This document shows positions 38,637-58,923 of a stretch of DNA of 64,000 nucleotides, piece by piece. Location of the stretch: positions 21,838 to 85,837 of the forward strand of contig CALHDG010000126.1 of the NCBI GenBank assembly GCA_938023075.1. The letters are read 5' to 3'. Within the stretch, counting starts at the first letter, position 1, and each line of letters starts with the position of its first letter. The stretch comes from an uncultured Chitinophagales bacterium. GTDB lineage: Bacteria; Bacteroidota; Bacteroidia; Chitinophagales; JAHDHT01. The notes beneath the pieces were generated by a model. It made no database searches and had not been told where the DNA came from. It was given only the letters and a program-made list of their open reading frames with translations. A program made the translations under genes and the position numbers.

Positions 38637-38692
38637 AATTAAAGAGTTAACGATAGGTATTTCTATTTAAAATTCAAATAATCAAGCAGCAA

Positions 38693-41686: not shown

Positions 41687-41755
41687 ATAAAGTTATTTAA
41701 ATCGCTTGACATAAATATACAAAGAATTGTTTCGTATTTAAGAACAAAATCAGCT

Positions 41756-44700
41756 TTACTTCATCTCCATTAACTTCTTCCTAAAAATCAAATCATCCGT
41801 TTGTATGGTCAAATAATACACACCATTTACCAAATCTGGGTAGTTCAACCGATGTTGATTTTGTTTCAAATTTACAGGTTGAACAACTTGTTGCCCTTGC
41901 GCGTTAAACAAACTAAGGGTTGCTTGCTTAAAAGTAGCATCTGCTACATGAATTTTAAAGATGCCGTTTGTTGGGTTAGGATAAATATTAAATAAATGGT
42001 TGATACTTTCTTCTTCTACACTCACCAAGTCGTTCAAATCGCTGCAATCGGTTACATAACCTTCGGGTTGTTCGCAACTTTCAATCATTTCGTTGGGGTT
42101 GCCTAAGCCATTGTTATTCATATCTCTGCACCAAGAGGTGTTAGGCAGCTCGTTCACCAAAATGCTTTCAACCGTATTGGTGATGATGGGCGGATTAAAA
42201 TCAAAATAAATAGCCGAGGTATTTTTGATTACTGTATTTTCAGGTAAACCAGTTTTGGGTTGGATGGAATACATCACATAGCCATTACTTCCTTCTAAGC
42301 TTGTGGTAGAATCGGGTAAATTAATGTTGTTAAACTCAAAAGTAATAGTGCCATCATCAGTAATGCTGGTTTGCAAACTATCTATATGGCTGCTGTTAAT
42401 TAAACTAAAGGTATTTAAATCTAAATTAGCATCTATTTTATCAGTAATAGAAACTTTAAAAGCTACATCGTTGCCGGTGTTTTGAAAACGGATGGTGTAA
42501 GTAAGGTTTTCATCTGTTAAAATATGATTGCATTGCCGGTTGGGGTTTACGAGTTTGTCGTTGGGGTCGTAAGAGCATCTTACCGGAGTTTGATAGTTAA
42601 ATACTGAGGTGGAAAATTGCTGACCATTGGTATCCGTAAATTCTGCAAAGCTTTCGAACGCTAAGTCTTGCCCAACTTCTACCTGCCCTATGCTGGGTAT
42701 GCCAACCTTAAGGTGTTTAGTTAGATATTCACTCGGCATAAGGTCTTCAAAAAACCAACCGTATTGATTAGGTTCAATCAGAGTATCGGGTTCATCAATA
42801 AAACTAAATGATGAAATATTTGCATCGGCTTTAAACCAAAGAATACCCTTGGTGTTGGTTGTGCCCCAATTTTTAGTGAGTAAATCAAATGGTACGGCTG
42901 TATTGCACCGAGCGTTACTTGAATACATAAATGACCGCATTTCGGATATGGGTTGATTGGGATACACGCCAAAATTTAAAACATCACATCCACCTGTGCT
43001 AAGGTTAAGTTGATAGCTTACCGAATCGGTAGTTAAGGTGGAGTTGGCGATGCTGGCTTCATCAATAGTTACCGTATACTTACCCGGCGTGGCAAACCAA
43101 ATACCATAACCGGTTTTAGGGTTTTGAATAATTTTAATATCGTCGGGGTTTAAGATAACTGAACCGAAAGAAGCATAGGGTTCGTTACTATCGTATATTT
43201 TGTTTTGGTTAAGATCATAAAAAAATTGGATACTAATTTTGCCACCTTGGCAATTTTGTTGAATTTCTGAAATGCTATTACATCCGAAGTAATTATTTTC
43301 AATTTTCAACCAACTATCAGGTTTCTCAATATAACTACAAAAAAATTCAGTGTTGCAATTACTTAATGAATTGTTGCCTTTTATTCCTATACCTTTAAAA
43401 CTAATATTGTTTAAAGCAGATATGTTAGTCAAAGCATCGTTATTAGATATTTTTACTGAACTTTCAATAATATTGAGATTCTCTAAACCGGATAATTTGG
43501 TTAAGCTAATATTTTCATCAATCACTAAAGGTCCTTCAACATTAGTAAGACCGTTTAAACCGGAAAGATCTTTTAGTAAAAAATTTTCTTTTATGAGTAA
43601 ACCAAGGAAACTTGTGTTAGGAGCTGCACTATTTGGAACACCAGAACCTATACTTTTTAGGTTTTCTAAACCGGTTAAGCTAGTTAAAGCACTAAGGTGC
43701 GCTATTTTAAAACATCCCCCAATTGATGATAATTTGTTTAAACCCATAAAGCTTTCTAAAGCATGATTTCCTTGATAAAAATAACCTTGATAATAAAAAA
43801 CATAGTTATCATTTCTTGGTATTATTCCTCCACCAACTACAAAATTGCCATCTATTTTAGCTAATTTCTCTAAGCCTGTAAAGTTGACTTGTTTGTGGTT
43901 TTCTGTCACTAAAAAATCACCTCCTATTGATTGGAGATTATCCAAGCCCTTAAAATTTAATATAGAACTATTTCCAATAATTTCTAAATTACCTGTAACT
44001 GTATCAAGGTTTTCTAAACCTGAAACATCGCTTAGATTATTATTATGAAATATTTCAAATTCATCAACCACATTAATATTCCTCAAAAATGATAAATCTT
44101 TCAAAACAGGATTACTTCGAATATTGATTGAACCAACTGAAGAAAGATTGGATAAGCCTGTTAAATCAATAAGGTTAAAGTTTTTTTCTATATTTAATGT
44201 TCCTATAGATACGATATTTTTAGGAAAAGTGAAACTATAAATATCAGTACCTCTAATATCAAAGATACCGTTAATAATTTTAATGTTTTCCAATTGAGCT
44301 AAATATTCAGTAAGATTTTCGTTAGTTGTTTCAAATGATGTAGATTGGGTACCTGAATCTATTGTTTTTGTATAACTCAAAGAGATATGACCTACTTCGG
44401 TTAAATTCATTAATCCAGATAAGTTAGATAATCTTTCGTTGCTATGAATTACCAGCCATCCACCAATTAAATTCAAATTATCTAATCCAGTTACATTTAA
44501 TAGAATCTCGTTTTCAAAAATGGCTAAGTTACCTCCTATTGACTGAATATTATTTAACCCAATAAGATTGACTAAAGCGTCATTATCTGAAATTCGACAA
44601 GTTCCACTTACAAAATTTAGATTTTCTAAACCAGAGAGTGTAGCTAATGAATTATTATCGTCAATAATTAAATTCTCAACTGATTGAATTTGCTTTAAGC

Positions 44701-45244
44701 TTGAAATGTCTTCTAAAATATTATTTTCAGAAATATCCAAATTGCCACTAATTGAGTTTAAATTTTCTAAGCCAGAAAGCGAACTTAAAGCATCATTATT
44801 TTTAATAGTTATAGAGGAAGCAGCAGTAATTTCTTTCAAACTTAATATATCTACTAACAATATATTATTAGCAATAGTTAAAAATGCTATTGAACGAAGA
44901 TTTTGCAAGCCAACTAAATTAGCTATTGCCGTATTTGTTATTCTTAACCTTCCGACCGATTCTAAATTTTCTAAACCAACCAATGAAGGTAAAAAAACTG
45001 CATTTTCAATTGTAAAAGTACCATCAATTGATACAAGATTTTGTAGACCAGTCAAATTAGAAATATAACTATTTCTTCCTTTAACATATATACTACCTTT
45101 CATCTCCGTACAATCCGGATAACTCAACCCAAAAGCATCAATCTCCTCTTGAGTATAAAAAACAACATCTCCCACAGGGCACTGCGAAAACGCCAAGAAA
45201 ACACTACAAACAAAAAGTAAAAAAACTAGTATAAATTTCTTCAT
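41756..45244 (-). CDS. LRR/L-domain-like surface protein with middle beta-rich region and T9SS CTD (paralogue 3)
   Basis: I prefer the start MKKFILVFLLFVCSVFLAFSQCP (ATG at 45242-45244). The architecture matches 38693-41686, and the CTD is nearly identical to that paralogue. Confidence 0.8.
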   Translation of the reverse strand: MKKFILVFLLFVCSVFLAFSQCPVGDVVFYTQEEIDAFGLSYPDCTEMKGSIYVKGRNSYISNLTGLQNLVSIDGTFTIENAVFLPSLVGLENLESVGRLRITNTAIANLVGLQNLRSIAFLTIANNILLVDILSLKEITAASSITIKNNDALSSLSGLENLNSISGNLDISENNILEDISSLKQIQSVENLIIDDNNSLATLSGLENLNFVSGTCRISDNDALVNLIGLNNIQSIGGNLAIFENEILLNVTGLDNLNLIGGWLVIHSNERLSNLSGLMNLTEVGHISLSYTKTIDSGTQSTSFETTNENLTEYLAQLENIKIINGIFDIRGTDIYSFTFPKNIVSIGTLNIEKNFNLIDLTGLSNLSSVGSINIRSNPVLKDLSFLRNINVVDEFEIFHNNNLSDVSGLENLDTVTGNLEIIGNSSILNFKGLDNLQSIGGDFLVTENHKQVNFTGLEKLAKIDGNFVVGGGIIPRNDNYVFYYQGYFYQGNHALESFMGLNKLSSIGGCFKIAHLSALTSLTGLENLKSIGSGVPNSAAPNTSFLGLLIKENFLLKDLSGLNGLTNVEGPLVIDENISLTKLSGLENLNIIESSVKISNNDALTNISALNNISFKGIGIKGNNSLSNCNTEFFCSYIEKPDSWLKIENNYFGCNSISEIQQNCQGGKISIQFFYDLNQNKIYDSNEPYASFGSVILNPDDIKIIQNPKTGYGIWFATPGKYTVTIDEASIANSTLTTDSVSYQLNLSTGGCDVLNFGVYPNQPISEMRSFMYSSNARCNTAVPFDLLTKNWGTTNTKGILWFKADANISSFSFIDEPDTLIEPNQYGWFFEDLMPSEYLTKHLKVGIPSIGQVEVGQDLAFESFAEFTDTNGQQFSTSVFNYQTPVRCSYDPNDKLVNPNRQCNHILTDENLTYTIRFQNTGNDVAFKVSITDKIDANLDLNTFSLINSSHIDSLQTSITDDGTITFEFNNINLPDSTTSLEGSNGYVMYSIQPKTGLPENTVIKNTSAIYFDFNPPIITNTVESILVNELPNTSWCRDMNNNGLGNPNEMIESCEQPEGYVTDCSDLNDLVSVEEESINHLFNIYPNPTNGIFKIHVADATFKQATLSLFNAQGQQVVQPVNLKQNQHRLNYPDLVNGVYYLTIQTDDLIFRKKLMEMK

Positions 45245-45493
45245 AATAACATAATTATTGGTTAACACGAGTTTCTGGTCCAGTAGAATTATATAGAATG
45301 GTGGTGAGGAGTACATATAACTCCAATAGGTAACATTTTAGTATGTGCTGCAAAATTCAATTCATCAAGCAATCACCCAAAAATCAATAAAAAACATCTC
45401 TATTTCTAATAAAAATCAGTACCTTCGCAGCCGAAAATCGTTAACGGTTAGACCGTAAGAACGAATATTTTTTAATGATTAATTCATTTTGTA

Positions 45494-46486
45494 ATGCCAG
45501 TAAAAATTAGACTTGCCCGCAGAGGCAGAAGTAAACGCCCTTTTTATCACATCGTTGTAGCCGATAGCCGTTCTCCCAGAGATGGTAAGTACATTGAAAA
45601 GTTAGGAATTTATGATCCATTAACCGTACCGGCAACTATTGATATTCAACAAGACCGCGCCCTGCATTGGTTAACGCAAGGCGCGCAACCAACCGATACA
45701 GCAAAAGCCATTTTATCGTATACAGGAGTGTTGTACAAAAAACATTTACAACGTGGCGTAAGTAAAGGAGCTTTATCGCAAGAGCAAGCCGATGCTAAAT
45801 TTATGGATTGGTGGGATGCGAAGCGTAAAAAAGTAGAAGATCATAAAAACAAAGTACAAGCCGAAAAAGAGCAAATGGCGGGAGACCGCAAAGCAGCGGA
45901 ATCAAAAATTAGAGCAGAGAAATCTGCCAGTATGCAGGCGGCTTTAGCTCCTGAAGGTGCAAGTGCCGAGGCTTCAGGCGGAGGCGCAACAGCTGAGCCC
46001 ACCGGCGATGCAATTGGTGATGCCTTAAGTACCGCACAAGCCGATAATGAAGCTTTATTAGGTATTAGTAAAGATGCCCCGGCTGAAGAGAAAAAGGTTG
46101 AGGAGCCAGTTGCAGAAACCCCAAAAGCAGAAGAGGCAGCAGCTGCGGTTGCAGAAGAGCTTAAAGTGGAAGAAGCTCCCGCACCAGTTGAAGAGGTAAA
46201 AGAAGAAGCTCCGGCACCAGCAGTGGAGCCGGATGATTTGAAAAAAATTGAAGGCGTTGGTCCAAAATTGGCTGAAGTTTTAAACGGCGGTGGTATTCAT
46301 ACCTTTACAGACTTAGCAGGAAAATCTCCAGAAGAAGTGAAAACCGTTTTAGAAAATGCAGAAGGTAATTTTGCCATGCACGATCCAACTACTTGGCCCA
46401 AACAAGCAAAATTGGCTGCCGACGGCAAATGGGATGAATTGAAAGTTTTACAAGATGAATTAGATGGTGGTAAAGAAACTGCTTAA
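45494..46486 (+). CDS. rpsP: 30S ribosomal protein S16 with ~240-aa C-terminal extension
   Basis: The N-terminus MPVKIRLARRGRSKRPFYHIVVADSRSPRDGKYIEKLGIYDP is canonical S16. It is followed by an A/E/P/K-rich low-complexity linker and a C-terminal helix-hairpin-helix-like module (IEGVGPKLAEVLNGGGIHTFTDLA). Confidence 0.85.
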   Translation: MPVKIRLARRGRSKRPFYHIVVADSRSPRDGKYIEKLGIYDPLTVPATIDIQQDRALHWLTQGAQPTDTAKAILSYTGVLYKKHLQRGVSKGALSQEQADAKFMDWWDAKRKKVEDHKNKVQAEKEQMAGDRKAAESKIRAEKSASMQAALAPEGASAEASGGGATAEPTGDAIGDALSTAQADNEALLGISKDAPAEEKKVEEPVAETPKAEEAAAAVAEELKVEEAPAPVEEVKEEAPAPAVEPDDLKKIEGVGPKLAEVLNGGGIHTFTDLAGKSPEEVKTVLENAEGNFAMHDPTTWPKQAKLAADGKWDELKVLQDELDGGKETA

Positions 46487-46516
46487 TAATTATTTTGTTA
46501 TGAAGATAAATAAAGA

Positions 46517-46546
46517 AAGCCTGCATTTTGTGCGGGCTTTTTTTTC
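46517..46546 (+). terminator. Rho-independent terminator after rpsP
   Basis: aagcctgca/tgcgggctt hairpin (one G-U pair) followed by a run of 8 T. Confidence 0.6.
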
Positions 46547-46651
46547 ATAATTGCTATGGAGCTATTTTTTGAAGAAGTATTAGTGCAAAAGCCTTCGTCA
46601 ACAAGTTTAAAATTTAACCTGACCAAGTATTAACATAGGATTGGTAAAACG

Positions 46652-47200
46652 ATGAAAAAGCTGCAAGAAGTTGGTAAAGTAATTAAATCTCACAAATTGA
46701 ATGGTGCGGTTAAAATCAAGTTGTTAAATTTTGAATTTTTAGGTAACGACTACCCTTCATTTTTGTACATCAATACAGAAGAAAAACCGTTACCCTATTT
46801 TATTAGTTCTTTTGATAAGATCGGTAAAAAAGAATGTATTATCCAGTTTGAAGAATGGGATAATAAAGAAGCGGTAAACACACAATTAAAAGGGAAATTA
46901 ATTTTTATTGATCCCAATGAACCAGTTCACCGTGGATTTCAAGCCTTAAAAGAACAAGGTAAAACAAATTATACCGGTTATCAACTATTTGACCAAAATC
47001 AGCTATACATTGGCACTATTGAAGATGTTTATGAAATCCCAAACAATACCTTATTATCGCTAGATATTAACAATCGTGAAGTGCTGATTCCCTTTCACAA
47101 TAATTTATTAATTGAAGTAAAAAACAATCAACAAGAAATACATCTTCAAATTCCAGAAGGTTTGATCAATTTAGCGGTCGATAGCTCCGAAGAAGAATAA
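46652..47200 (+). CDS. rimM: Ribosome maturation factor RimM
   Basis: 182 aa. The N-terminus VGKVIKSHKLNGAVKIKL resembles the RimM GxxGxxkv beta-barrel. It has a PRC-barrel-like C-terminus and sits downstream of rpsP as in most bacteria. Confidence 0.7.
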   Translation: MKKLQEVGKVIKSHKLNGAVKIKLLNFEFLGNDYPSFLYINTEEKPLPYFISSFDKIGKKECIIQFEEWDNKEAVNTQLKGKLIFIDPNEPVHRGFQALKEQGKTNYTGYQLFDQNQLYIGTIEDVYEIPNNTLLSLDINNREVLIPFHNNLLIEVKNNQQEIHLQIPEGLINLAVDSSEEE

Positions 47201-47444
47201 TTGCCATATTAGCTGTTCAAATATATTTCATTATAAACAAAATATATTTGTATGTTTTTTAATTAATTGTGAATAAAATCTTGATAAGTTCTTTTCATTC
47301 TTAATAAAATCTTTACCAAAACTATAGGTAAATTGTTAATTCCATTCTCTATTTTAGCAACTTATCAAAAAACAAGAGCAATACACAAAGCATTTATCAA
47401 CAAGAAATTTATTTACAAAACAAAATAATACAATTAAAACTAAT

Positions 47445-50400
47445 ATGAATATTTGCAAAACTGTACTAAGTGTAGTGTTCACTTGGCTAATTACAATAAC
47501 TGTAGCGCAAGCCCAATGTGGCAACTTATACATTGCCGGTATTGTTGATGGTCCATTGCCAGGAGGTACGCCAAAGGGTATTCAACTATGTGCTAACGGT
47601 GCTATTGCTGATTTAAGCATTTATGGCATTGAATCAGTAACCAACGGAAACGGTTCTAATGGAACAGAAGAATATACTTTTGAAGCCATTGCTTTGTCTG
47701 CCGGTGATTGTATTTGGTTAACTACGGATATAGCTCAATTTAATGCATTTTTTGGCTTTGATGCCTGTTATGAAGATAATGTAATTGGAGTAAATGGTGA
47801 TGATGCCGTGTTGCTCTATTGTTCTACCGTACTTGAAGACGTTGCCGGTGATCCGGATACAGATGGCTCAGATACCAATTGGGAATATCAAGATGGATGG
47901 ATGTACTCGAGTGATACCGATGCGAATCCGGTTTTTGATGAAACTGAATGGACTTACAGCGGTGCAGATGCTTTAGATGGTGAAACCGATAATGCTTCGG
48001 CGGCTATACCCTACCCCAATACCGATATTAGCTGCCCTGCTTTAATGGTAGATTGCCCGGCTTTGGGCTTAAACATTGGAGCTGCTTGTGATGATGCTAA
48101 TCCAACAACCTCAAACGATACGGTTACCGCGTCTTGCAATTGCGAAGGTACTCAAAGTGGAGAAGCCCTTTGTTTTACCGATACGGCTTGCGACTTTGAA
48201 ATTGTAGCCGTAGCGCTTAACAGCCAGGCAGATGATTGGTCATGCAATGCCGGCACCTACGAAGCAAATGGTTTTGTTGGCAGCGGCACTATGGAAACCA
48301 GCGATCTATGGCTAATATCTGGCGTATACGATTTTTCTGGTTCAAGTAATATTACTCTTCAATTAGATGCTATAGAAGGATTTGACGGTTCAAATATTGA
48401 AATTTTTTATACCACTTCTTATGCAGGTTGCCCGGGTGATGCCTCCAACAATTGGGTTTCGGCAGGCTTAATTGCTACAGGAGCAGGTGGTACTGGTTTG
48501 TCAATTGATTTATCGGGTTCAGCTGGCTCAACAGGGGTCTATATCGGTATTCAATATTTATCGGGCTCCGCTCCTCAAGATGCCAGTAATTGGACGCTTT
48601 CTAACATTTCATTAATTGCCGATGTTTGCCCAACGGTTGCTACTCCGGTAACTTCTAACTGCGATTTAAGTGTGGGTTGTACAGATAATATGGCTTGTAA
48701 TTTTGATTCAACTGCAACGGTAGATGATGGTTCGTGTTTCAGTGTTGGCGATGCTTGTGATGATGGCGACCCAAATACAATTAACGATGTTTATGTAGAT
48801 TGTTCTACTTGTATGGGTGAAGAATTGGGTGGAAATTATTGTAGTGTGCCAGTATGGGAAGCAGTATCCGTTGTCAATAATAGCCAGCTTGATGTTTGGA
48901 CAACCATTACCGATGGTTGGTCTATGAATGGATTCTGTGGTGGCGGATGTCAGGAGCAGGTAGACCAATGGTTAGTATATGGACCATTAGATATGTCTGC
49001 TACATCAGATTTAAGCTTACTTTTTGAAGCAGCAGAAAGCTTCGGTGAAACTCCTTTAAATATTAATTTCACAACTGATTATTCTTCAGGATGTCCTTCA
49101 TCAACAACTTGGACTTTAGCAAGTACCGTTACAGAAGCTGGAACAATTAGTATTGATTTAAGTGGTGCAAGCAGCACAGCACTTTATATTGGTATTGAAT
49201 ATAGTGATGATGGTGATGGTGGATATAGCGATTGGGATTTAACCAACTTCCAATTATTGTCTGAGGCTTGCCCTACCGTTGGAACTCCAATTGTATCCAG
49301 TTGCGATATCGCCAATGCGGGTTGTATTAGTGCTTCTGCTTGTAATTTTGATCCGATGGCTACAGAAGATGACGGCTCTTGCTTATTTGATGGAGATCCT
49401 TGTACAGATAGTAATGGCAATCCCTCTACTTTTGCCGAAGATTGTACTTGCCCGTCAATGGCAGTTACCTGTGCATCATCTGCAAAAATTAATGAATTTC
49501 ATTATGATAATGATGGCGGTGATGTGAATGAATTTGTTGAAATTGCCTTACCTGCAGGCTCCGATCCTACTTCAGTTCGGGTAGATTTATACAATGGTTC
49601 TAATGGAACTACATATGATTCAGTGGTTTTAAGTGCCTCAGAATTTATCAGCAGCGATGGCACTTCCGATTATTATGTATGGGTTGTAGTTCCACAAAAT
49701 GGACCGGACGGTATTGCGGTAAGTTGTGTAGATGGTACGCAATATCAATTTATTTCTTATGAAGGTGATTTTTTGGCTACCGATGGTCCTTTTGCAGATG
49801 TAATGAGTACAGATATTGGTGTTGAAGAAGCAGGAAATTCATCAGAAACATCCTCTATTATGTGTGATGATAATGGAAATTATTTAAGCAATTGTACAGC
49901 CGACCCGGGTGCAGCCAATAATATAAGTTCTTGTATTATTGAATTGTTGGGTTGTACAACTGAAACGGCTTGTAATTACAATCCTGAGGCTACAACAGAT
50001 GATGGTTCCTGTTTTAGCGTAGGCGATTCCTGTGATGATGGTAATCCCGATACTTTAGGAGATGTGTATACCGATTGTTCAACTTGTATGGGAGAAACAC
50101 CTAGCGGACAAATTTGCGACGCTCCAGTTTGGGAAGCCGTATCAGTTATTAATAACAGCCAGCTTGATGTTTGGACTGCCATTACCGATGGATGGTCGAT
50201 GAATGGATTTTGCGGTAGCGGTTGTGCAGAACAAGTAGACCAATGGTTGATCTATGGACCTTTGGATATGTCAGGAGCCAATAACGTAAGTTTACTTTTT
50301 GAAGCAGCTGAAGACTTTACTGAAACCCCATTAAACATCAATTTTACAAGCGATTATTCTGCTGGATGTCCTTCATCAGCATCCTGGACTTTGGCAAGTA

Positions 50401-53090
50401 CAATAGCCGATGCTGCATCAATAAATGTTGATTTAAGTGCAGCAACCGGTTCAGCAGTTTACATTGGTATAGAATATAGTGATGATGGTGCAGATGGTTA
50501 CAGCGATTGGGATTTAACCAACTTCCAGCTATTAGCCGATGCTTGTCCAACCGTTGGTACACCCATTGTTTCCAATTGTGGTATTAGTATTGACGGCTGT
50601 ACCAACGATGCCGCTTGTAATTATAATCCATCAGCTACTAATGATGATGGTTCTTGCGTAGTTGTTGGAGATGCTTGTACAGACACTAATGGTAATCCCT
50701 CAACGATCGGCCTAGATTGCAATTGTACAGCAATCATCAATGTAACCTGCGCTACATCTGCTAAAATCAATGAATTTCATTATGATAATGCGGGTACAGA
50801 TGTAAACGAATTTGTAGAAATTGCTTTGCCTGCCGGTTCTGACCCTGCATCAGTTCAAATCAACTTATATAATGGAAGTGATGGAACTTCTTACGAATCC
50901 ATAATATTAAGTTCGGCAGAGTATACAAGTTCCAATGCAACTAGCGATTTTTATGTTTGGTCTCCAACCAGCATTCAAAACGGTCCAGATGGTATTGCGG
51001 TAAGTTGTGTAGATGGTACTCAATATCAATTCATTACTTACGAAGGTTCGTTTATGGCAACTGATGGTCCATTTGCTGGATCAGAAGGCACAGACATTGG
51101 TGTTGAAGAGCAAGGTGATGCGCCCGAAACTTCCTCAATTATGTGTGATGGTAATGGAAATTTTATGGCAAATTGTGTAGCTGATGCTGGTGCCACGAAC
51201 AATTTATCGACTTGTGTAACCATAGTTGTTGGTTGCACCGATCCTTGTGATCCTAATTACAATGCAGATGCTACCGAAGATGATCCTTCCTCATGTGCAG
51301 GATACTCAACTGACTGTGATGATGGTGATTGTAACACGTCAGATTCTTATGATAATACAATATGTGCTTGTATAAACACACCAATAGACCCACCTAATTG
51401 TGATGATAGCGATTGCAGTACTGAAGATAGTTATGATAGCGCAACTTGTACCTGCCTAAATATTCCGGCAGATATACCAGATTGTGATGACAACGATTGT
51501 AACACCGATGATACTTATGATCAAACTAATTGTGTTTGTGTTAACACACCAATAAGCCCACCAAATTGTGATGATAGCGATTGCAGTACTGCAGATAATT
51601 ATGATAGCACAACCTGTACTTGTGTCAATACGCCAATCGATCCACCAAATTGTGATGATGGTAATTGTTCAAATGGAGTCGAAACTTATGATGAACAAAA
51701 CTGTGTTTGCGTGCCGGGCACACCACTAACCCCATTAGATTGCGATGATAATGATTGCAATACCGAAGATGTTTATGATGAAGCAACTTGTAGTTGTATC
51801 AATACGCCAATCACTCCACCAAATTGCGATGATGGAGATTGCAATACGGAAGATTCTTATGATAGTGTAAATTGTATTTGTGTCAATACTTTAATTGGTG
51901 CACCAGACTGCGATGATGGTGATTGTAACACAATAAATACTTACGACTATGCCACTTGCGAATGTGTTGCCACACCAATCGAACCACTCAATTGTGATGA
52001 CGATATTTGCGGAACGGAAGATAGTTACGATAGCACAACTTGTACGTGTATTAATACCCCAATAGAACCACCGGTTTGTGATGATGGTATATGTTCAAAC
52101 GGAGTAGAAATCTATAATGCCGAAACATGTGAATGTGAGCCGGGTGTGCCAGGTGAAATTCCAACTTGTGATGATGGCGATTGCAATACCGAAGATGTAT
52201 ATGATGAAGATAACTGCATTTGTGTCAATACCCCAATCGATCCACCAAACTGCGATGATAATGATTGCAATACAGAAGATGCTTATGATTTAGCTACATG
52301 TACATGTGTTAATACTTCAATTACTCCGCCAGATTGTGATGACAGTAATTGTAATACTTTGGATAGTTATGATACTACAACTTGCACTTGTGTAAATTCT
52401 CCAATTGATCCACCAAATTGTGATGATGGCATTTGTGGAACTGAAGATAGCTATGATAGCACAACTTGTACTTGTGTAAATATGCCAATTCAACCAGCAG
52501 ATTGCGATAGCGATAATTGTAGTACTAATGTATGGGATCCAGAAATCTGTGAATGTGTACTAGCCGGGATTCCAGAACCATTAGATTGCGATGATAATGA
52601 TTGCAGTACTACTGACATTTTCGATGAAACTTTATGTGATTGTATCTATCAACAAATTTCAGTTGATCCTGATGATGGCTGCGAATTTACAGATGATAGT
52701 TATGATGCTGCTACTTGTACAGTAACCAACACACCAAACTGTCCTGCAGGCGCTACGTTTAACGAAGGTGCTTGCACTTGCGATGATGTTCCTGTGCCAG
52801 GCTGTACAGATCCTTGTGCGCCAAGTTATAATGCAGAGGCTAATACAGATGACGGTTCTTGCGAAGCTTACACCACAGATTGTAATCAGGATTGTACTGC
52901 CGGCTCATTTGGGGGAAATTGGGACACGATGTCTTGTGCTTGTATAAATGAAACCGAACCGGTTAATGGTTGTACAGATTCAAACGCAACAAATTATAAT
53001 CCAGCGGCTAATTGTGATGACGGAAGTTGTACACTACCGGCAGACTGTACAACGCCGCCTGCTATTGGTACTTTTAATTGTGACGAATAA
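47445..53090 (+). CDS. Giant secreted multidomain protein (lamin-tail-like domains, repeated beta-sandwich modules, Cys-rich 28-aa repeat array)
   Basis: 1881 aa with a signal peptide (ITVAQAQC). It has LTD-like segments (AKINEFHYDN.G.DVNEFVEIALPAGSDP, twice, plus an N-terminal LYIAGIVDGPLPGG... variant). It carries 7 copies of the GCTD..ACNYNP.AT.DDGSC motif and 16-17 CDDxDC repeats. No T9SS CTD is recognisable at its C-terminus. Confidence 0.8.
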   Translation: MNICKTVLSVVFTWLITITVAQAQCGNLYIAGIVDGPLPGGTPKGIQLCANGAIADLSIYGIESVTNGNGSNGTEEYTFEAIALSAGDCIWLTTDIAQFNAFFGFDACYEDNVIGVNGDDAVLLYCSTVLEDVAGDPDTDGSDTNWEYQDGWMYSSDTDANPVFDETEWTYSGADALDGETDNASAAIPYPNTDISCPALMVDCPALGLNIGAACDDANPTTSNDTVTASCNCEGTQSGEALCFTDTACDFEIVAVALNSQADDWSCNAGTYEANGFVGSGTMETSDLWLISGVYDFSGSSNITLQLDAIEGFDGSNIEIFYTTSYAGCPGDASNNWVSAGLIATGAGGTGLSIDLSGSAGSTGVYIGIQYLSGSAPQDASNWTLSNISLIADVCPTVATPVTSNCDLSVGCTDNMACNFDSTATVDDGSCFSVGDACDDGDPNTINDVYVDCSTCMGEELGGNYCSVPVWEAVSVVNNSQLDVWTTITDGWSMNGFCGGGCQEQVDQWLVYGPLDMSATSDLSLLFEAAESFGETPLNINFTTDYSSGCPSSTTWTLASTVTEAGTISIDLSGASSTALYIGIEYSDDGDGGYSDWDLTNFQLLSEACPTVGTPIVSSCDIANAGCISASACNFDPMATEDDGSCLFDGDPCTDSNGNPSTFAEDCTCPSMAVTCASSAKINEFHYDNDGGDVNEFVEIALPAGSDPTSVRVDLYNGSNGTTYDSVVLSASEFISSDGTSDYYVWVVVPQNGPDGIAVSCVDGTQYQFISYEGDFLATDGPFADVMSTDIGVEEAGNSSETSSIMCDDNGNYLSNCTADPGAANNISSCIIELLGCTTETACNYNPEATTDDGSCFSVGDSCDDGNPDTLGDVYTDCSTCMGETPSGQICDAPVWEAVSVINNSQLDVWTAITDGWSMNGFCGSGCAEQVDQWLIYGPLDMSGANNVSLLFEAAEDFTETPLNINFTSDYSAGCPSSASWTLASTIADAASINVDLSAATGSAVYIGIEYSDDGADGYSDWDLTNFQLLADACPTVGTPIVSNCGISIDGCTNDAACNYNPSATNDDGSCVVVGDACTDTNGNPSTIGLDCNCTAIINVTCATSAKINEFHYDNAGTDVNEFVEIALPAGSDPASVQINLYNGSDGTSYESIILSSAEYTSSNATSDFYVWSPTSIQNGPDGIAVSCVDGTQYQFITYEGSFMATDGPFAGSEGTDIGVEEQGDAPETSSIMCDGNGNFMANCVADAGATNNLSTCVTIVVGCTDPCDPNYNADATEDDPSSCAGYSTDCDDGDCNTSDSYDNTICACINTPIDPPNCDDSDCSTEDSYDSATCTCLNIPADIPDCDDNDCNTDDTYDQTNCVCVNTPISPPNCDDSDCSTADNYDSTTCTCVNTPIDPPNCDDGNCSNGVETYDEQNCVCVPGTPLTPLDCDDNDCNTEDVYDEATCSCINTPITPPNCDDGDCNTEDSYDSVNCICVNTLIGAPDCDDGDCNTINTYDYATCECVATPIEPLNCDDDICGTEDSYDSTTCTCINTPIEPPVCDDGICSNGVEIYNAETCECEPGVPGEIPTCDDGDCNTEDVYDEDNCICVNTPIDPPNCDDNDCNTEDAYDLATCTCVNTSITPPDCDDSNCNTLDSYDTTTCTCVNSPIDPPNCDDGICGTEDSYDSTTCTCVNMPIQPADCDSDNCSTNVWDPEICECVLAGIPEPLDCDDNDCSTTDIFDETLCDCIYQQISVDPDDGCEFTDDSYDAATCTVTNTPNCPAGATFNEGACTCDDVPVPGCTDPCAPSYNAEANTDDGSCEAYTTDCNQDCTAGSFGGNWDTMSCACINETEPVNGCTDSNATNYNPAANCDDGSCTLPADCTTPPAIGTFNCDE
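48840..51330. repeat. Tandem duplication of a ~1275-bp (425-aa) module within the giant gene
   Basis: Cys466 (nt 48840) and Cys891 (nt 50115) start collinear segments (CSVPVWEAVSVVNNSQLDVW... and CDAPVWEAVSVINNSQLDVW...). These stay alignable for about 420 aa. Confidence 0.85.
51315..52740. repeat. In-frame tandem array of 16-17 units of 84 bp (28 aa; some 30 aa), four Cys per unit
   Basis: The consensus is CDDxDCxTEDSYDSxTCTCVNTPIxPPN. The first Cys codon is at 51315-51317 and the next unit begins at 51399 (84 bp later). Confidence 0.9.
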
Positions 53091-53158
53091 CCACATCTTA
53101 AATAAAAATTTTTAAAGCGAAAAAATCTTATTATATTTAAGCAATAAATAATTATAAC

Positions 53159-55786
53159 ATGTCTGAAAAAGTATTTCTCTTTTTATTAACTGTATTGATT
53201 TCGGTATTAAACATCGATGTTCAAGCACAAGATCCATGTTTAAACGTTTGCCCCACACAAGGTGCCCTTCTTACTGTATCTAATGAAGACCCATCTGCTA
53301 TAAATCGGGTGGTTTGTATTGATAATTTAACCGGAGCCAACTTTGTAATTAGAAATGGTGCAGAATTAGGTGCTCTTCCAGAAGCCATTTATTCTTGTTA
53401 CTCCGTTGCGGTAAGTGATACTAACCCTGATGACAATACCGAATTTGACATTGCTTCGGTAACGTATACCATAGAAAATATAGATGCAGAATTAGATTTA
53501 GCGTTATTAGATACCGGGGAATGCGGGAGTGTAAGTGCTATGGCAAAAACATTTGATATAAATTCTGCCTATTGCGAACCGGAGTTTGGTTGTATGTTAG
53601 ATTTGTGTTTGTGTGATGAAAATGCAGGTACAGATTTTGTTTTCGATTACACGTCAGCCGAAAATACCGGAGAAACAGAAGAAGTGTTTATTGTAGTAGA
53701 TTTAGATGGTAGTGTTGCAGCGGTAGGCACCAATTCTCCAATAAGTGCCGTAGGTTTGGCAACAGGTAGTTATTCAATATACGGAGTCATTTACGATCCT
53801 GCTAAAGCTGGCAATTTAGTTGGTTTGCTCACTATTGGTGCTTCTTTATCAGATATTCAAACTGAATTGGCAAACTCGGCTTGTGGGTCTATTTCAACTA
53901 CACCATTAAAAGCATCGATTAATGAAGATTTTTGTGAGTGTGAAGATGATGGAGATAAAATGTGTGCTACCGATATTTGTCCATGCAATGGGGATGCCAA
54001 CGAAATAAAATTGTCTACCACAGGTTACACCGGAGGTGATAATCAACAATGGTATGTAGTGGTTTCTAGCGGTTCAATTGTTATTACTCAGCAAGCCAAT
54101 GCAGATGGTTCGGTAGCCATTGCCAACTTGCCAGATGGTGCACACGAAGTATATGCAGTCAATTACGATCCGGCTACAAATACAAATATAACATCTGCAT
54201 TAGAAGCTGGAAATGTATGGTCTAATTTTGCGGATGGCGTAAATAGTGGAACTTATTGTGCCGATTTTATTGGTCCGCAAAACATCTCAATTAATGTAAT
54301 GTGCGATTGCGGTGGAATGTCGGCAATATCTCTTGCTACTACCACAGATGTTTCAGATATCACCACACCCGCTGAGCCAGGTCAGGTAATTAATTATAGG
54401 TATACAGTTTGCAATACGGGTGATGATGATTTAACTGATATTAGTGTTAGCAGTGATATCGCTACCGTTTCAGGTGGAGCAATCAGTTTAGCAGCAGGTA
54501 CTTGTGATGAGGCAACTTTTTCTGCTTCTTATACAATAACGACAGAAAATATCACTAATGGTTCGGTTGTTAGTTCTTCAGTTGCTAATGGTATCGCTTC
54601 TGACGGTACAATGATTTCAGATAATGATCTTGCTACCGTTCAATTATCTATGCAACCGCTTGAGTGTAATAATAATGCTGGTGTAATGCCTTCTACTATA
54701 TTGAATATTTGTTTTGGAAACATAGCTAATGCGCCAACAATGGGAGCTGCAATTGATGCCGGTAGTACGTTAACTTATGTATTGCACGATGGCAATGCTA
54801 CAGACTTTGGTTCGATAATAGATTACAACAATACAGGTTTGTTTGTAAACAATGGTGCGTTTCCTACCGGTATTCAATTATATATATGCGCCGTTATAAG
54901 TCCCGATACTGGCAGTTTCCCTAATCTTGAGGCAGATTGTACCTCAATTTCAAATTGTACACCAGTTACATTTTTATCTGAGGTAGAGATAGGGGTAGAA
55001 GTAGATTGTACTAATAGCGGAAACTATTCGGTTATTTTTGAAGTAAGCGGCGGTTTGCCATCCTCGCAGGTTGGCGGTTTGTACAGTGTAAGTGGAGACT
55101 TTACCGGTTTGGTAGCTCCTAATACGCCAACTTCTGCCGGTCCGTTTAATGCGGGTACTTTCTATACCTTAAACGTTATCGATAATAATGGATGCAGTAC
55201 TAGCATGGTCAGCCAAAAAATTCTCTGTGAGAAATTACCTATTGAGTTAATTAGCTTTTCTGGAGAGGTGCTTAAACAAGGGAACTACTTAAAATGGATT
55301 ACCGCCAATGAAATTGAAAACGATTACTTTACGTTGGAGCGTTCTACTGATGGTGTTAATTTTGAATTGATTAGTACACAAAAGGGAGCTGGCACATCCA
55401 GCGAAAATAAACGGTACAATTACTTGGATAGAGAAGCTCCGAGTGGAATCAGCTATTATAAACTATGGCAAACAGATTTTGACGGAACTATTAGTAATTA
55501 TGGCATGATAGAGTTAAGCCGTGGTGAGGCTAATTTAGCAATTAACCAATTATTACCCATACCAGTATTAGATTTCTTAGAGTTGACTTATACCAGTATT
55601 TCAGAAAGTGAAGTGCAATTGCAAATTTACGATGCCTTAGGTAAACAAATGAGTAGCAAAACGATTTCATCTGCTGCTGGTTTAAATACGGAGAATATAG
55701 ATGTCTCGACCTATCCTTCTGGCATGTATTTCTTAACTATTAATCAAGGCAAATCTACTATAACAGAAAAATTCATTAAAGAATAA
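53159..55786 (+). CDS. Secreted protein with DUF11-like repeat domain and T9SS C-terminal sorting domain
   Basis: It has a signal peptide. The segment ISLATTTDVSDITTPAEPGQVINYRYTVCNTGDDDLTDISV resembles the conserved-repeat (DUF11-type) fold. The C-terminal ~90 aa (PIPVLDFLELTY...MYFLTINQGKSTITEKFIKE) is T9SS-CTD-like. Confidence 0.75.
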   Translation: MSEKVFLFLLTVLISVLNIDVQAQDPCLNVCPTQGALLTVSNEDPSAINRVVCIDNLTGANFVIRNGAELGALPEAIYSCYSVAVSDTNPDDNTEFDIASVTYTIENIDAELDLALLDTGECGSVSAMAKTFDINSAYCEPEFGCMLDLCLCDENAGTDFVFDYTSAENTGETEEVFIVVDLDGSVAAVGTNSPISAVGLATGSYSIYGVIYDPAKAGNLVGLLTIGASLSDIQTELANSACGSISTTPLKASINEDFCECEDDGDKMCATDICPCNGDANEIKLSTTGYTGGDNQQWYVVVSSGSIVITQQANADGSVAIANLPDGAHEVYAVNYDPATNTNITSALEAGNVWSNFADGVNSGTYCADFIGPQNISINVMCDCGGMSAISLATTTDVSDITTPAEPGQVINYRYTVCNTGDDDLTDISVSSDIATVSGGAISLAAGTCDEATFSASYTITTENITNGSVVSSSVANGIASDGTMISDNDLATVQLSMQPLECNNNAGVMPSTILNICFGNIANAPTMGAAIDAGSTLTYVLHDGNATDFGSIIDYNNTGLFVNNGAFPTGIQLYICAVISPDTGSFPNLEADCTSISNCTPVTFLSEVEIGVEVDCTNSGNYSVIFEVSGGLPSSQVGGLYSVSGDFTGLVAPNTPTSAGPFNAGTFYTLNVIDNNGCSTSMVSQKILCEKLPIELISFSGEVLKQGNYLKWITANEIENDYFTLERSTDGVNFELISTQKGAGTSSENKRYNYLDREAPSGISYYKLWQTDFDGTISNYGMIELSRGEANLAINQLLPIPVLDFLELTYTSISESEVQLQIYDALGKQMSSKTISSAAGLNTENIDVSTYPSGMYFLTINQGKSTITEKFIKE

Positions 55787-55808
55787 ATAAACTTAAATAC
55801 AAAATAAA

Positions 55809-55837
55809 AGCCTGCATTTTTAATGCAGGCTTTTTTA
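55809..55837 (+). terminator. Rho-independent terminator
   Basis: Perfect 10-bp stem agcctgcatt/aatgcaggct with a 3-nt loop, then tttttt. Confidence 0.7.
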
Positions 55838-55843
55838 TTTTTG
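55836..55843 (+). promoter_or_regulatory. Bacteroidota-type -7 promoter box TAnnTTTG for trmD
   Basis: tatttttg lies 21 nt upstream of the GTG start at 55865. Confidence 0.4.
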
Positions 55844-55864
55844 TACTAAGAAAAAAAAATAGCT

Positions 55865-56536
55865 GTGTTATCTATCGACATTATTACTGTTCTACCAGAG
55901 CTTTTAGAAAGCCCCTTGAATCACTCTATTATGCAACGAGCAAAAGATAGAGGCTTATTGAAAGTCAACCTGATCAATTTGCGCGATTATTCAACCCACA
56001 AACAAAAACAAGTTGACGATTACCAATATGGTGGAGGAGCCGGCATGGTGTTAATGATTGAACCAATCGCTAATTGCATCAATCAACTTAAATCCGAAAA
56101 ATCTTACGATGAAATTATTTATATGTCGCCTGATGGAGAGCTACTCAATCAGCAAAAAGCAAATTATCTCTCACTAAAACAAAATATTTTAATACTTTGC
56201 GGACATTACAAAGGCGTTGACGAACGGGTGCGCGAACATTTTATCACCAAAGAAATTTCGATAGGTGAATACGTTATTTCAGGCGGCGAGTTAGCTGCCG
56301 TTGTATTAGTAGATGCCCTTGGCAGGTTAGTACCCGGCGTTTTAAATGACGAAACTTCTGCATTGTTTGATTCTTTTCAAGATGGGAAAATTGCTCCACC
56401 GGTGTATACACGCCCAGCAAATTACAAGGGTTGGGAAGTACCCGAAATTCTACTATCCGGTCACGCCGCCAAAATTGACGAATGGCGGGAAGCACAAGCT
56501 CAAAAAAGAACCAACGAAAGAACGAAACTTAGTTGA
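55865..56536 (+). CDS. trmD: tRNA (guanine37-N1)-methyltransferase
   Basis: GTG start, 223 aa. Contains [13 protein letters not shown] and [11 protein letters not shown]...[11 protein letters not shown], typical of the TrmD SPOUT knot. Confidence 0.85.
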
Positions 56537-57018: not shown

Positions 57019-58923
57019 TTACTTAACCAAAGAAAACAGCAATAAACCGGTAGTCGTTTTTACATCAATATGATAATTACCCGAAGCGATATGACCAACT
57101 TCCATTTGTATAGTATTAGCTCCTTCAAACAATTCAGCATTAATCTGTTGAACAATCTTTCCATCAATACTTCTAATAAAAATAGTAACCGGTTCATGAA
57201 CAGGAGATTGTAGTTCAAGATTCAACACTTCATTTAAAGGTACGGGATAAACGTTTTCAATAGACAATATTTCAGATTGACCAACCGGAATTTCTTTAGG
57301 CGAAATTATGCCAAGGTCGTAGTTTACAAAGTTGTAAATAATTGTAAAAACCAACACATCTTGAGAAGTACTCCCTTGACAGCCATTACCATCATCATAA
57401 GTATAGGTAATAGTATGAAAACCAGGACCGGCAATGCCAGGGTTAAAAGCATTAAAAATTACGCCATTACCCGAAAAAGTGCCACCTGCTGGAGAACCGG
57501 TTAAATTAATTGGAGAACTGCTACCGGTACTTGCCGGCAAGCCCGTAAAGCTAGCTGGAGGACAAGCAGTGCCATCATCTAATGCCACATCTAAAGTTAG
57601 AGTTTGACAATCCGTTAGGGTTACATTGGTGGTATAAGTATTGTAACCATTTGCTGTTATGGTTACAGTGTATGTACCTTGATTATTAGCTGTTCCAACA
57701 CCATAATATCCACTAAAATTGGTATTGTCATTATCTAAAGGCGGGTTAAAACTAACCATAGCATTGTATATTGGATTACCCGTTGTCAGGTCGGTAACAA
57801 TACCTTCAATATTCGCAGAACAACCAAAATTATTGTCTATTACAAACAATCCATTAGTTCGGTCAGAAGCTAGGAGTTTGCCAGATGGTAAAAAAGGATA
57901 AACCCCCCAACAACCATTATAATATCCTGCAGTTGGTGCGGAGTAAGTATCAAAAAAACCAACTTCCGTTAATATTTTGGGATTTTGAGCACAAACCACC
58001 GTTATCCCATCTTCGTAATAAGAAGTAATTAAATAATCATTATTTACGTGTACATTATGTGGAATTACTCCGGTTCCAGGACCAGATTGGTAACCCGTAA
58101 TTCGTTGAATATTTGTAGGGTCACTAACATCATATGCTCCAACTTCAGCACCTGATATTTCATCGGTTGTATAAAGATAATTGCCGTCATCACTGGGCCA
58201 TACATTGTGCGTAAAGTTAAAAGTTGTATTAATAGATCCTAATACGGTACTGCTGTTCACGTTTGATTTGTTGCTTACATCCACCAAAGAAAATACTCCT
58301 TGAAACAATTCTGCGGTATACAAAATGTTGTTACGGGCATAACCATCGTGGCAATAGGCTAAGTCATATTCTCCTACAATTACCGGATTGGCAGGATTGG
58401 AAGCAATGTCGATAATGAGTGCTCCACCTCCACCAGGCGCATTGCCACCAAACAGATAGCCATAGCCAAATTCATCAATATAAATATTATGTGCGGTATT
58501 GTGTACAAATAGCGATCCATTATACAAATAACCTTGGGCGGCACCATTCCAAAAAGTATAACTACAAGTGCCCGGCAAACTACTCAAGTCAATTACCATT
58601 AAACCACCACCGGTTTCGTTGGTTATATAAGCGCGGTCATTCCAGGTTTTAATGTCTCGCCAATCTGATAGTACATCTGGAATCAATTGCAACTCTACAG
58701 GATTGGTGGGATTGGTTACATCCACTATGGAAACCCCATCCACTAATCCAACTAAAGCATATTCTTTTCCATTGGCAGCATAACCCCAAATGTCGTTTAA
58801 GCCACTGGAGTAAGAAAGCTGTCCTAATAAATTTAACTGGGTTTGTGCTTTTAAGTGAGTATTTAAAAAGAAAGTGAAGATAAAAGTAGATACTAACAGG
58901 AAAAAATTTCTTAATAATTTCAT
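57019..58923 (-). CDS. Beta-propeller (LVIVD / choice-of-anchor-B-like) secreted protein with T9SS CTD
   Basis: It has a signal peptide. The N-terminus LNLLGQLSYSSGLNDIWGYAANGKEYALVGLVDGVSIVDVTNPTNP is typical of the LVIVD-repeat propeller family. It also has a carboxypeptidase-regulatory-like middle segment and a T9SS-type C-terminus. Confidence 0.7.
   Translation of the reverse strand: MKLLRNFFLLVSTFIFTFFLNTHLKAQTQLNLLGQLSYSSGLNDIWGYAANGKEYALVGLVDGVSIVDVTNPTNPVELQLIPDVLSDWRDIKTWNDRAYITNETGGGLMVIDLSSLPGTCSYTFWNGAAQGYLYNGSLFVHNTAHNIYIDEFGYGYLFGGNAPGGGGALIIDIASNPANPVIVGEYDLAYCHDGYARNNILYTAELFQGVFSLVDVSNKSNVNSSTVLGSINTTFNFTHNVWPSDDGNYLYTTDEISGAEVGAYDVSDPTNIQRITGYQSGPGTGVIPHNVHVNNDYLITSYYEDGITVVCAQNPKILTEVGFFDTYSAPTAGYYNGCWGVYPFLPSGKLLASDRTNGLFVIDNNFGCSANIEGIVTDLTTGNPIYNAMVSFNPPLDNDNTNFSGYYGVGTANNQGTYTVTITANGYNTYTTNVTLTDCQTLTLDVALDDGTACPPASFTGLPASTGSSSPINLTGSPAGGTFSGNGVIFNAFNPGIAGPGFHTITYTYDDGNGCQGSTSQDVLVFTIIYNFVNYDLGIISPKEIPVGQSEILSIENVYPVPLNEVLNLELQSPVHEPVTIFIRSIDGKIVQQINAELFEGANTIQMEVGHIASGNYHIDVKTTTGLLLFSLVK

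Follow-up and report, generated by a model that had tools for sequence, protein, structure and literature searches.

A tandem four-cysteine repeat from an uncultured Chitinophagales bacterium and its relation to Dicty_CTDC

What kind of protein module is repeated, about every 84 bp, within a long secreted-protein gene of an uncultured Chitinophagales bacterium? The gene lies in a stretch of 64,000 nucleotides (35% GC), hereafter the window, that spans positions 21,838 to 85,837 of contig CALHDG010000126.1 (GenBank assembly GCA_938023075.1), and between 51315 and 52739 it encodes an array of short Cys-rich units. We find that the unit is a homologue of Dicty_CTDC (PF00526), a Cys-rich repeat of the Dictyostelium matrix proteins EcmA and EcmB (PMC4931340 Table 4; PMC4406040), and that it represents a rare, disulfide-rewired, linker-extended and Bacteroidota-restricted subfamily missed by current domain databases. 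The first-pass annotation of this DNA had not recognised the unit as a named domain, which holds insofar as no curated model names it, but not insofar as its homologue bears a name. The same annotation had allowed for the unit mapping to a well-described Cys-rich family; the family to which it maps is, however, poorly described both structurally and functionally.

The repeat unit and its kinship with Dicty_CTDC

The array starts at residue 1291 of the encoded protein (nt 51315), where 16 consecutive four-Cys units, each opening with CD[DS], are followed by a 17th, two-Cys unit that ends at 52739. This agrees in place and end coordinate with the 16-17 tandem copies annotated earlier, and the translation likewise bears out the description of each unit as having four Cys, an acidic core and a Pro-rich joint. 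Among the four-Cys units, 14 are 28 aa long, while units 5 and 10 have 30 aa and the pattern CDDGxCSNGVExY..CxCxPGxP. Variants of 30 aa had been reported at units 5, 10 and 15; unit 15 is of the same subtype but has 28 aa. This second subtype, CDDGxCSNGxE[x][YW]...CxC..G.P, recurs in the proteins P0126, P0147, P0154 and P0190, and a classical four-Cys counterpart of it exists, for example in P0244 (CDDGKFCNGIETCDATLGCKPGTPP). Over its 475 aa the array holds 66 Cys and 24% Asp+Glu, with no Lys, Arg or His. Position 12 is Tyr in at least 90% of 49 canonical units and Phe in the rest, and Trp occurs there in the variant subtype. As read from the translation, the array is laid out as follows.

51315-51650, + strand: units 1-4, canonical 28-aa four-Cys units, CDDxDCxTxDxYDxxxCxCxNxPIxPPx
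51651-51740, + strand: unit 5, 30-aa variant subtype, CDDGNCSNGVETYDEQNCVCVPGTPLTPLD
51741-52076, + strand: units 6-9, canonical 28-aa units
52077-52166, + strand: unit 10, 30-aa variant subtype, CDDGICSNGVEIYNAETCECEPGVPGEIPT
52167-52502, + strand: units 11-14, canonical 28-aa units
52503-52586, + strand: unit 15, variant subtype yet 28 aa, CDSDNCSTNVWDPEICECVLAGIPEPLD
52587-52670, + strand: unit 16, degenerate four-Cys unit, CDDNDCSTTDIFDETLCDCIYQQISVDP
52671-52739, + strand: unit 17, two-Cys variant without Cys1 and Cys19, DDGCEFTDDSYDAATCTVTNTPN
51315, 51399, 51483, 51567, 51651, 51741, 51825, 51909, + strand: starts of units 1-8
51993, 52077, 52167, 52251, 52335, 52419, 52503, 52587, + strand: starts of units 9-16

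No family covering the unit emerged when the whole protein, the array and its sub-fragments were scanned with Pfam and NCBIfam. PF00526 is carried, however, by the weakest matches of a search made with the array (P0159, P0178, P0181 and P0182), and several lines of evidence tie the two repeats together. When profiles of 49 window-type and 18 Dicty-type units were compared with hhalign, they aligned over 25 ungapped columns with 94.9% probability and E 4.7e-8; the real score was 29.6, against a column-shuffled null with mean 9.3, sd 2.2 and maximum 17.4 (n=150). Aligned jointly with MAFFT, the two unit types stay in register, with C1, D3, T8, D10 and C19 invariant and the PPx linker as an insertion. 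P0159 is a hybrid in which three window-type units are directly followed by a bona fide PF00526 unit, and a transitional unit is present in P0178. In the AlphaFold2 model of P0159 (pLDDT 93.7), the three window-type units and the PF00526 unit show an equivalent hairpin, with the strands of the PF00526 unit beginning at the corresponding Thr and near the corresponding Cys19. Profile-profile match, in-register alignment, hybrid proteins and common predicted hairpin together identify the window unit as a Dicty_CTDC homologue.

Even with the cut-off relaxed to E<=10, neither the full-length protein nor the array, entire or in 5-unit fragments, matched the PF00526 model itself, in a scan where the four PF00526-bearing proteins named above, as positive controls, scored 34-218 bits against a gathering threshold of 27 bits. 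The Dicty_CTDC Cys pattern, C1-x5-C7-x4-C12-x6-C19 in a unit of ~24 aa, is absent from the array, which has Cys at 1, 6, 17 and 19 and Tyr at 12; the shared non-Cys signature, CDD..(C)T.D......C.[NH].P[IV], is present and in register. The two unit types thus resemble each other in length class, register, C1, D2, D3, T8, D10, C19, [NH]21, P23 and [IV]24, in predicted hairpin topology and in forming long tandem arrays in secreted proteins, and they stand side by side within single proteins (P0159, P0178). They differ in their Cys positions (1-6-17-19 in the window unit, where Tyr, Phe or Trp stands in for Cys12 and a CxC has arisen, versus 1-7-12-19), in an extra 3-residue Pro-rich linker that distinguishes the 28-aa window unit from the 24-25 aa of Dicty_CTDC, and in range, since window-type units, unlike Dicty_CTDC, are limited to Saprospiraceae, Chitinophagales and Sphingobacteriales within the Bacteroidota.

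Two other Cys-rich families were considered and rejected. CXCXC (PF03128) scored 20.7 bits (cut-off 15) only on the fragment with units 6-10, where its best stretch was CECEPG of unit 10; its 13-residue model covers part of the unit, scans of the array and the whole protein gave no match, and the unit has CxC rather than CxCxC. Galaxin_repeat (PF24748) stayed below its cut-off of 28, with 11-18 bits for fragments of five units. Both matches are resemblances at the level of composition. We dropped an ice-binding reading, prompted by TCT motifs like those of the Tenebrio antifreeze protein, because position 18 is not conserved (T/E/V/I/A/S). Sequence and profile searches of the PDB found no match to the unit, and Foldseek returned nothing below E 1e-3 from the PDB and BFVD, its best and non-significant match being the Cys-rich region of the Entamoeba Gal/GalNAc lectin heavy chain (E 0.11). 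None of these searches found a solved structure for a window-type or a PF00526 unit, and PF00526 is listed among the families without known structure (PMC8078820).

A separate observation concerns P0181, where residues 139-350 form a Dicty_CTDC array with a 3-unit super-repeat of 4, 3 and 3 Cys. Cys7 is absent in one unit and Cys12 in the next, a hint that a disulfide might link neighbouring units in some classical arrays.

Cysteine pattern, predicted fold and history of the array

AlphaFold2 modelled units 1-5, from a 19-row alignment, with a mean pLDDT of 92.6 and one hairpin per unit, its strands at positions 8-13 and 18-23. How the Cys residues may pair around this hairpin is suggested by their co-occurrence among 796 unique units aligned to one HMM. 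Cys stand at positions 1, 6, 17 and 19 in 463 units, at 1, 5, 17 and 19 in 103, at 1, 7, 12 and 19 in 90 and at 1, 7, 17 and 19 in 50; smaller classes have Cys at 1, 17 and 19 (38 units), at 1 and 19 (17) or at 1, 12 and 19 (11). Cys12 and Cys17 never occur together, and a loop Cys at position 5, 6 or 7 goes with Cys12 or Cys17 (odds ratio 16.6, p 1e-11, in counts that are not phylogenetically independent). Among units in the two-Cys register, C1 and C19 are both absent in 70 and both present in 20, and in none is one found without the other. Because Cys12 and Cys17 are mutually exclusive, the loop Cys is paired with either, and C1 and C19 are gained or lost together, the simplest reading would be disulfides C1-C19 and C6-C17 in window units and C1-C19 and C7-C12 in Dicty_CTDC.

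Arrays of a two-Cys variant occur in P0072 and P0208, and unit 17 of the window is of this type. These unnamed repeats, DDGC.LT.DSFD...C.IVNTP, are clearly the same unit, with T8, D10, aromatic 12, Cys17 and NTP in common, but unlike the four-Cys units of the window they have no C1-C19 pair, and C5/6-C17 is the one pair left to them.

The first-pass annotation had also proposed a super-repeat of five units, or about 426 bp, above the 84-bp periodicity. Tandem Repeats Finder reported the 84-bp period (7.2 and 3.2 copies) and a 168-bp period; with a maximum period of 500, it made no call at 426. The longer period nonetheless emerges from other measures. Ungapped self-identity of the DNA is 62% at an offset of 426 and 56% at 852, versus 53% at 84; units five apart are on average 69.5% identical and units ten apart 70%, with all other lags at 63-64%; and permuting the order of units gave p~3e-4 when all 15 units were included and p~0.03 when the three variants were left out and the 12 canonical units remained. 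The super-repeat is blurred, positional correspondence being clear only in units 5/10/15, 4/9/14 and 6/11, and block 1 has a local 2-unit period (units 1~3, 2~4). A 4+1 higher-order block is thus supported in the array, and most likely the array was built from such a block and has diverged since.

This divergence bears on the forces that act on the array now. In comparisons between canonical units, codon positions 1+2 are identical in 75-79% of cases and position 3 in 57-59%. The better conservation of positions 1+2 points to selection on the peptide rather than on the DNA, and indicates that purifying selection probably acts on the array's peptide sequence. DNA identity between adjacent units is only ~60%, and exact direct repeats reach 28 nt at most, so the array is no obvious hotspot for slippage at present, contrary to the earlier expectation that it would be prone to copy-number change. 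Some relatives, P0121 and P0122 among them, do have near-identical units, with exact repeats of 84-119 nt.

The encoded protein, its relatives and its neighbours

The protein that carries the array is a secreted, multidomain product of 1881 aa, of which public protein data hold an identical copy (P0001). Its other features are these.

47445-53090, + strand: gene for the secreted multidomain protein of 1881 aa (open reading frame list and translation)
N-terminus of that protein, + strand: signal peptide, MNICKTVLSVVFTWLITITVAQA
47514-51314, + strand: N-terminal modules, namely one ExeM-N-terminal-like module, three choice-of-anchor-J-like beta-sandwiches and two lamin-tail-like modules (KINEFHYDN)
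Between the N-terminal modules, + strand: small Cys modules, CN[YF][ND]..A..DDGSC and CDDG.P.T.ND....C.C (motif scan)
52740-53087, + strand: C-terminal tail with small Cys modules, CPAGATFNEGACTC, C..YN..A..DDGSC twice and CNQDC..G..W...CAC once

NF038128 of NCBIfam scores 44.9 bits on the whole protein and matches weakly at the level of segments, and PF00932 is present in homologues retrieved through the N-terminal modules. No sorting domain was detected in the C-terminal tail, and neither type A (PF18962) nor type B (PF13585) C-terminal sorting domains of the type IX secretion system (T9SS) were detected in the protein. Its composition is extreme, with 147 Cys (7.8%), 17% Asp+Glu and 5 Lys+Arg in total; the latter amount to 0.3%, compared with 10-11% in cytoplasmic neighbours and 3-7% in other secreted or T9SS-cargo neighbours within the window. 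Protease resistance and cation binding are among the possible causes of this composition.

A second small Cys module, GC(T)D..ACN[YF][ND]..A..DDGSC, stands ahead of every beta-sandwich module (48696-48737, 49341-49382, 49971-50012 and 50616-50657) and also at aa 1261-1290 and 1779-1881, and usually has a CDDGDPxTxNDxY..C.C unit after it. The module is found again in P0004, P0072, P0126 and P0190, and neither Pfam nor NCBIfam has a model for it.

With the array as query, a word-indexed search retrieved 69 protein clusters, and HMMER, run exhaustively with a 5-unit profile, retrieved only about 225 clusters at 50% identity (E<=1e-3) from 1.84 billion representatives. Arrays range from 1 to 63 units and adjoin diverse partner domains. 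All array-bearing genome matches are metagenome-assembled genomes from Saprospiraceae, Chitinophagales, Sphingobacteriales or unclassified Bacteroidetes, so that the family, rare by its cluster count, is on these genome matches confined to Bacteroidota (Saprospiraceae, Chitinophagales and Sphingobacteriales). A T9SS C-terminal sorting domain is found in 45 of the 69 array-bearing homologues, and in 16 of 35 of these the array ends <=140 aa from the C-terminus, directly before that domain. Unit number changes among relatives: the collinear orthologues L013, L005 and L089, an orthologue set different from that of the window gene, have 20, 21 and 25 units within constant flanks and are 55-57% identical end to end.

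For the window protein itself, the best relatives are Saprospiraceae proteins that are 54% identical, and alleles of the gene sought in genome and metagenome collections gave no relative closer than about 57-68%. Together with the GC content of the window and the T9SS C-terminal domains of its neighbours, these Saprospiraceae relatives make an origin in one of the groups named above most likely. The closest full-length relatives (P0002, P0003, L093 and others) have the same N-terminal modules and no array, and the KINEFHYDN lamin-tail-like motif is absent from the array-bearing relatives; the window protein thus appears to be a chimera that gained the array as an accessory module.

Two of the relatives deserve separate mention. 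The C-terminus of P0072 (VPTVGEWGLIILALILLNLGVLYIRQ) looks less like a T9SS C-terminal domain than like a sorting signal of the IPTL-CTERM type; if it truly is of that type, the repeat would be paired with more than one anchoring system. P0159 has a partial, sub-threshold match to Por_Secre_tail (14 bits against a cut-off of 27) and is deposited under the brown alga Discosporangium mesarthrocarpum; it may come from a Bacteroidota contaminant or symbiont contig in that assembly.

Around the array gene, the conserved order rpsP-rimM-trmD is broken (45494-56536), with two large secreted-protein genes, 47445-53090 and 53159-55786, lying between rimM (46652-47200) and trmD (55865-56536). The open reading frame at 53159-55786 encodes DUF7507 and a T9SS C-terminal domain. 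We rejected the idea that a frameshift would give the array protein this C-terminal domain, because the downstream frame comes with a start codon, a signal peptide and a C-terminal domain of its own and because a TAA stop and a 68-nt AT-rich spacer separate the two genes. T9SS C-terminal sorting domains are also encoded at 57019-58923 and 35859-45316. The latter interval, on the - strand, holds three tandem paralogous T9SS cargo genes (925, 997 and 1186 aa) with Receptor-L / EndoS-LRR-like repeats, DUF7619 in two of the three and Por_Secre_tail in all three. The ribosomal protein S16 frame (45494-46486) is 330 aa long, although the S16 domain covers only residues 9-67; its long acidic/basic C-terminal extension includes a helix-hairpin-helix (HHH_5) match at residues 247-285.

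Proposed role, rival explanations and significance

We consider it fairly probable that the array is a run of 16-17 folded mini-domains, derived from Dicty_CTDC and stapled by disulfides, that together make a semi-rigid acidic spacer, possibly stabilised by Ca2+. Each independently folded mini-domain of ~23 residues would comprise the modelled beta-hairpin (strand 1 from T8 to D13, strand 2 from x18 to P23) and, upstream of it, the acidic N-terminal loop C1-D-D-x-D-C6, and 5-residue Pro-rich linkers (I-x-P-P-x) would connect one unit to the next. The loop would fold back on the hairpin, pinned there by C1-C19 and C6-C17. Descent from a Dicty_CTDC-type repeat (C1, C7, C12, C19) would then have kept the C1-C19 staple, moved the second staple from C7-C12 to C6-C17, put Tyr in the place vacated by Cys12 and added the PPx linker, and the array would have been amplified from a 4+1-unit block before diverging under purifying selection on the protein sequence. 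The invariant cluster D2/D3/T8/D10 suggests one Ca2+ site per unit, which would probably stiffen it, and metal binding by the array is plausible given this cluster and the extreme acidity. Thrombospondin type-3 repeats, cbEGF and LDL-receptor class A modules are disulfide-stapled, Ca2+-binding tandem mini-repeats of eukaryotic matrix proteins, and they offer an analogy in which short, Asp-rich, Cys-stapled tandem units make an extended extracellular rod. No similarity of sequence or fold between these modules and the unit was detected, and Ca2+ binding by the unit is something that we infer.

With no Lys, Arg or His, such a spacer may be protease-resistant and strongly anionic, and it may serve to keep the lamin-tail-like and choice-of-anchor-J-like beta-sandwiches of an exported, Saprospiraceae-like protein at a distance from whatever the C-terminus touches. 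Generic geometry, with about 2 nm for each 6-residue strand and roughly 1.5 nm for each PPII linker, would give an extended 16-unit rod a length of some tens of nanometres. Because T9SS C-terminal domains are frequent among array-bearing homologues, arrays often abut them, partners are diverse, unit number varies and array-free relatives exist, the family context favours a putative spacer or stalk role. The first-pass annotation had gone further, picturing a stalk that projects the N-terminal modules from the cell surface. A stalk or spacer fits the family, but for the window protein, which has a signal peptide and no recognised anchor (T9SS C-terminal domain, lipobox or transmembrane segment), projection from the surface is unproven.

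That missing anchor is one of several points that weigh against the spacer reading. The pTM of the AlphaFold2 models is only 0.57-0.62, too low for a firm conclusion on rigidity from one unit to the next. Both the disulfide map and the putative Ca2+ site were drawn from patterns of co-occurrence and conservation, not from geometry, and the Cys counts behind the map are not phylogenetically independent. In L005, L013 and L089 the array is internal, ~885 aa from the C-terminus, so closeness to the membrane is not a feature of every member. Finally, a ligand-binding role of the array is possible.

The fullest form of that last idea makes the array a multivalent surface, lectin-like or matrix-binding, that presents aromatic residue 12 with Thr and Asp to polysaccharide or extracellular matrix and draws avidity from tandem repetition, much as EcmA and EcmB integrate into the cellulose-containing matrix of Dictyostelium. 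The invariance of T8 and D10 and the conserved aromatic at position 12 would suit such a surface, as would the nearest named family being one of slime-mold matrix proteins (PMC4931340 Table 4; PMC4406040) and the best Foldseek match, non-significant as it is, being a lectin. Yet residue 12 occupies an ancestral half-cystine column, where a buried structural replacement is more expected than an exposed ligand contact; the number of units is free to vary from 1 to 63 and the closest full-length relatives do without the array, which is more typical of a spacer; and Pfam, Foldseek and PDB searches found no similarity to any carbohydrate-binding module. Since the aromatic replaces a former half-cystine and both array and unit number are dispensable among relatives, we regard a binding surface as unlikely, though it is the strongest of the alternatives.

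A role as a sponge for Ca2+ or other metal ions, or as a mineral-interacting polyanion whose Cys serve partly as metal ligands, draws on the acidic residues, the lack of basic residues and the 66 Cys of the array, on the scarcity of Lys and Arg in the protein at large and on sub-threshold matches (15-18 bits, cut-off 28) to Galaxin_repeat, a family of the coral skeletal matrix. It seems improbable to us, because the strict gain and loss of Cys in pairs is a signature of disulfides rather than metal clusters, and because a Sec signal peptide and T9SS-cargo relatives point to an oxidising extracellular setting; the Galaxin match, moreover, stays under threshold. Least credible is that the array is a contingency locus, where rapid expansion and contraction of the 84-bp repeat would vary the length or antigenicity of a surface protein. 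Orthologues do differ in unit number (20, 21 and 25), and several relatives, including P0121 and P0122, have units similar enough in DNA to share exact repeats of 84-119 nt; in the window allele, by contrast, the low identity of adjacent units, the 28-nt limit on exact repeats and the diverged third codon positions make this role very improbable, and no near-identical allele was found in genome or metagenome collections.

The semi-rigid spacer reading can be extended into a joint proposal that we advance only tentatively and think doubtful as a whole: the unit would be a new mini-domain with two disulfides and Ca2+, in which a disulfide migrated from C7-C12 to C6-C17 with Tyr back-filling the vacated position, and which serves in 1-63 copies as a molecular ruler. 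For the biology of marine Saprospiraceae the array adds little beyond another modular surface or secreted protein, with no surprising biological mechanism. Its interest lies with the unit. An unannotated repeat family of ~225 clusters is added to the Dicty_CTDC superfamily, and would warrant an entry of its own in Pfam/InterPro, or a clan link. From the natural range of Cys patterns comes a putative disulfide map drawn from sequence, and with it an example of disulfide relocation without change of the predicted hairpin. At ~23 residues plus linker, with a high-confidence model, no Lys, Arg or His and up to 63 copies, the unit is also a candidate rigid linker for engineering. If the joint proposal is true, it would document a natural disulfide migration of which living intermediates (1, 7, 17, 19) persist, and it would give a first structural handle on the whole Dicty_CTDC superfamily. 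A ruler free of Lys and Arg and of tunable length would then set the reach of the binding modules that Saprospiraceae display at the surface or secrete.

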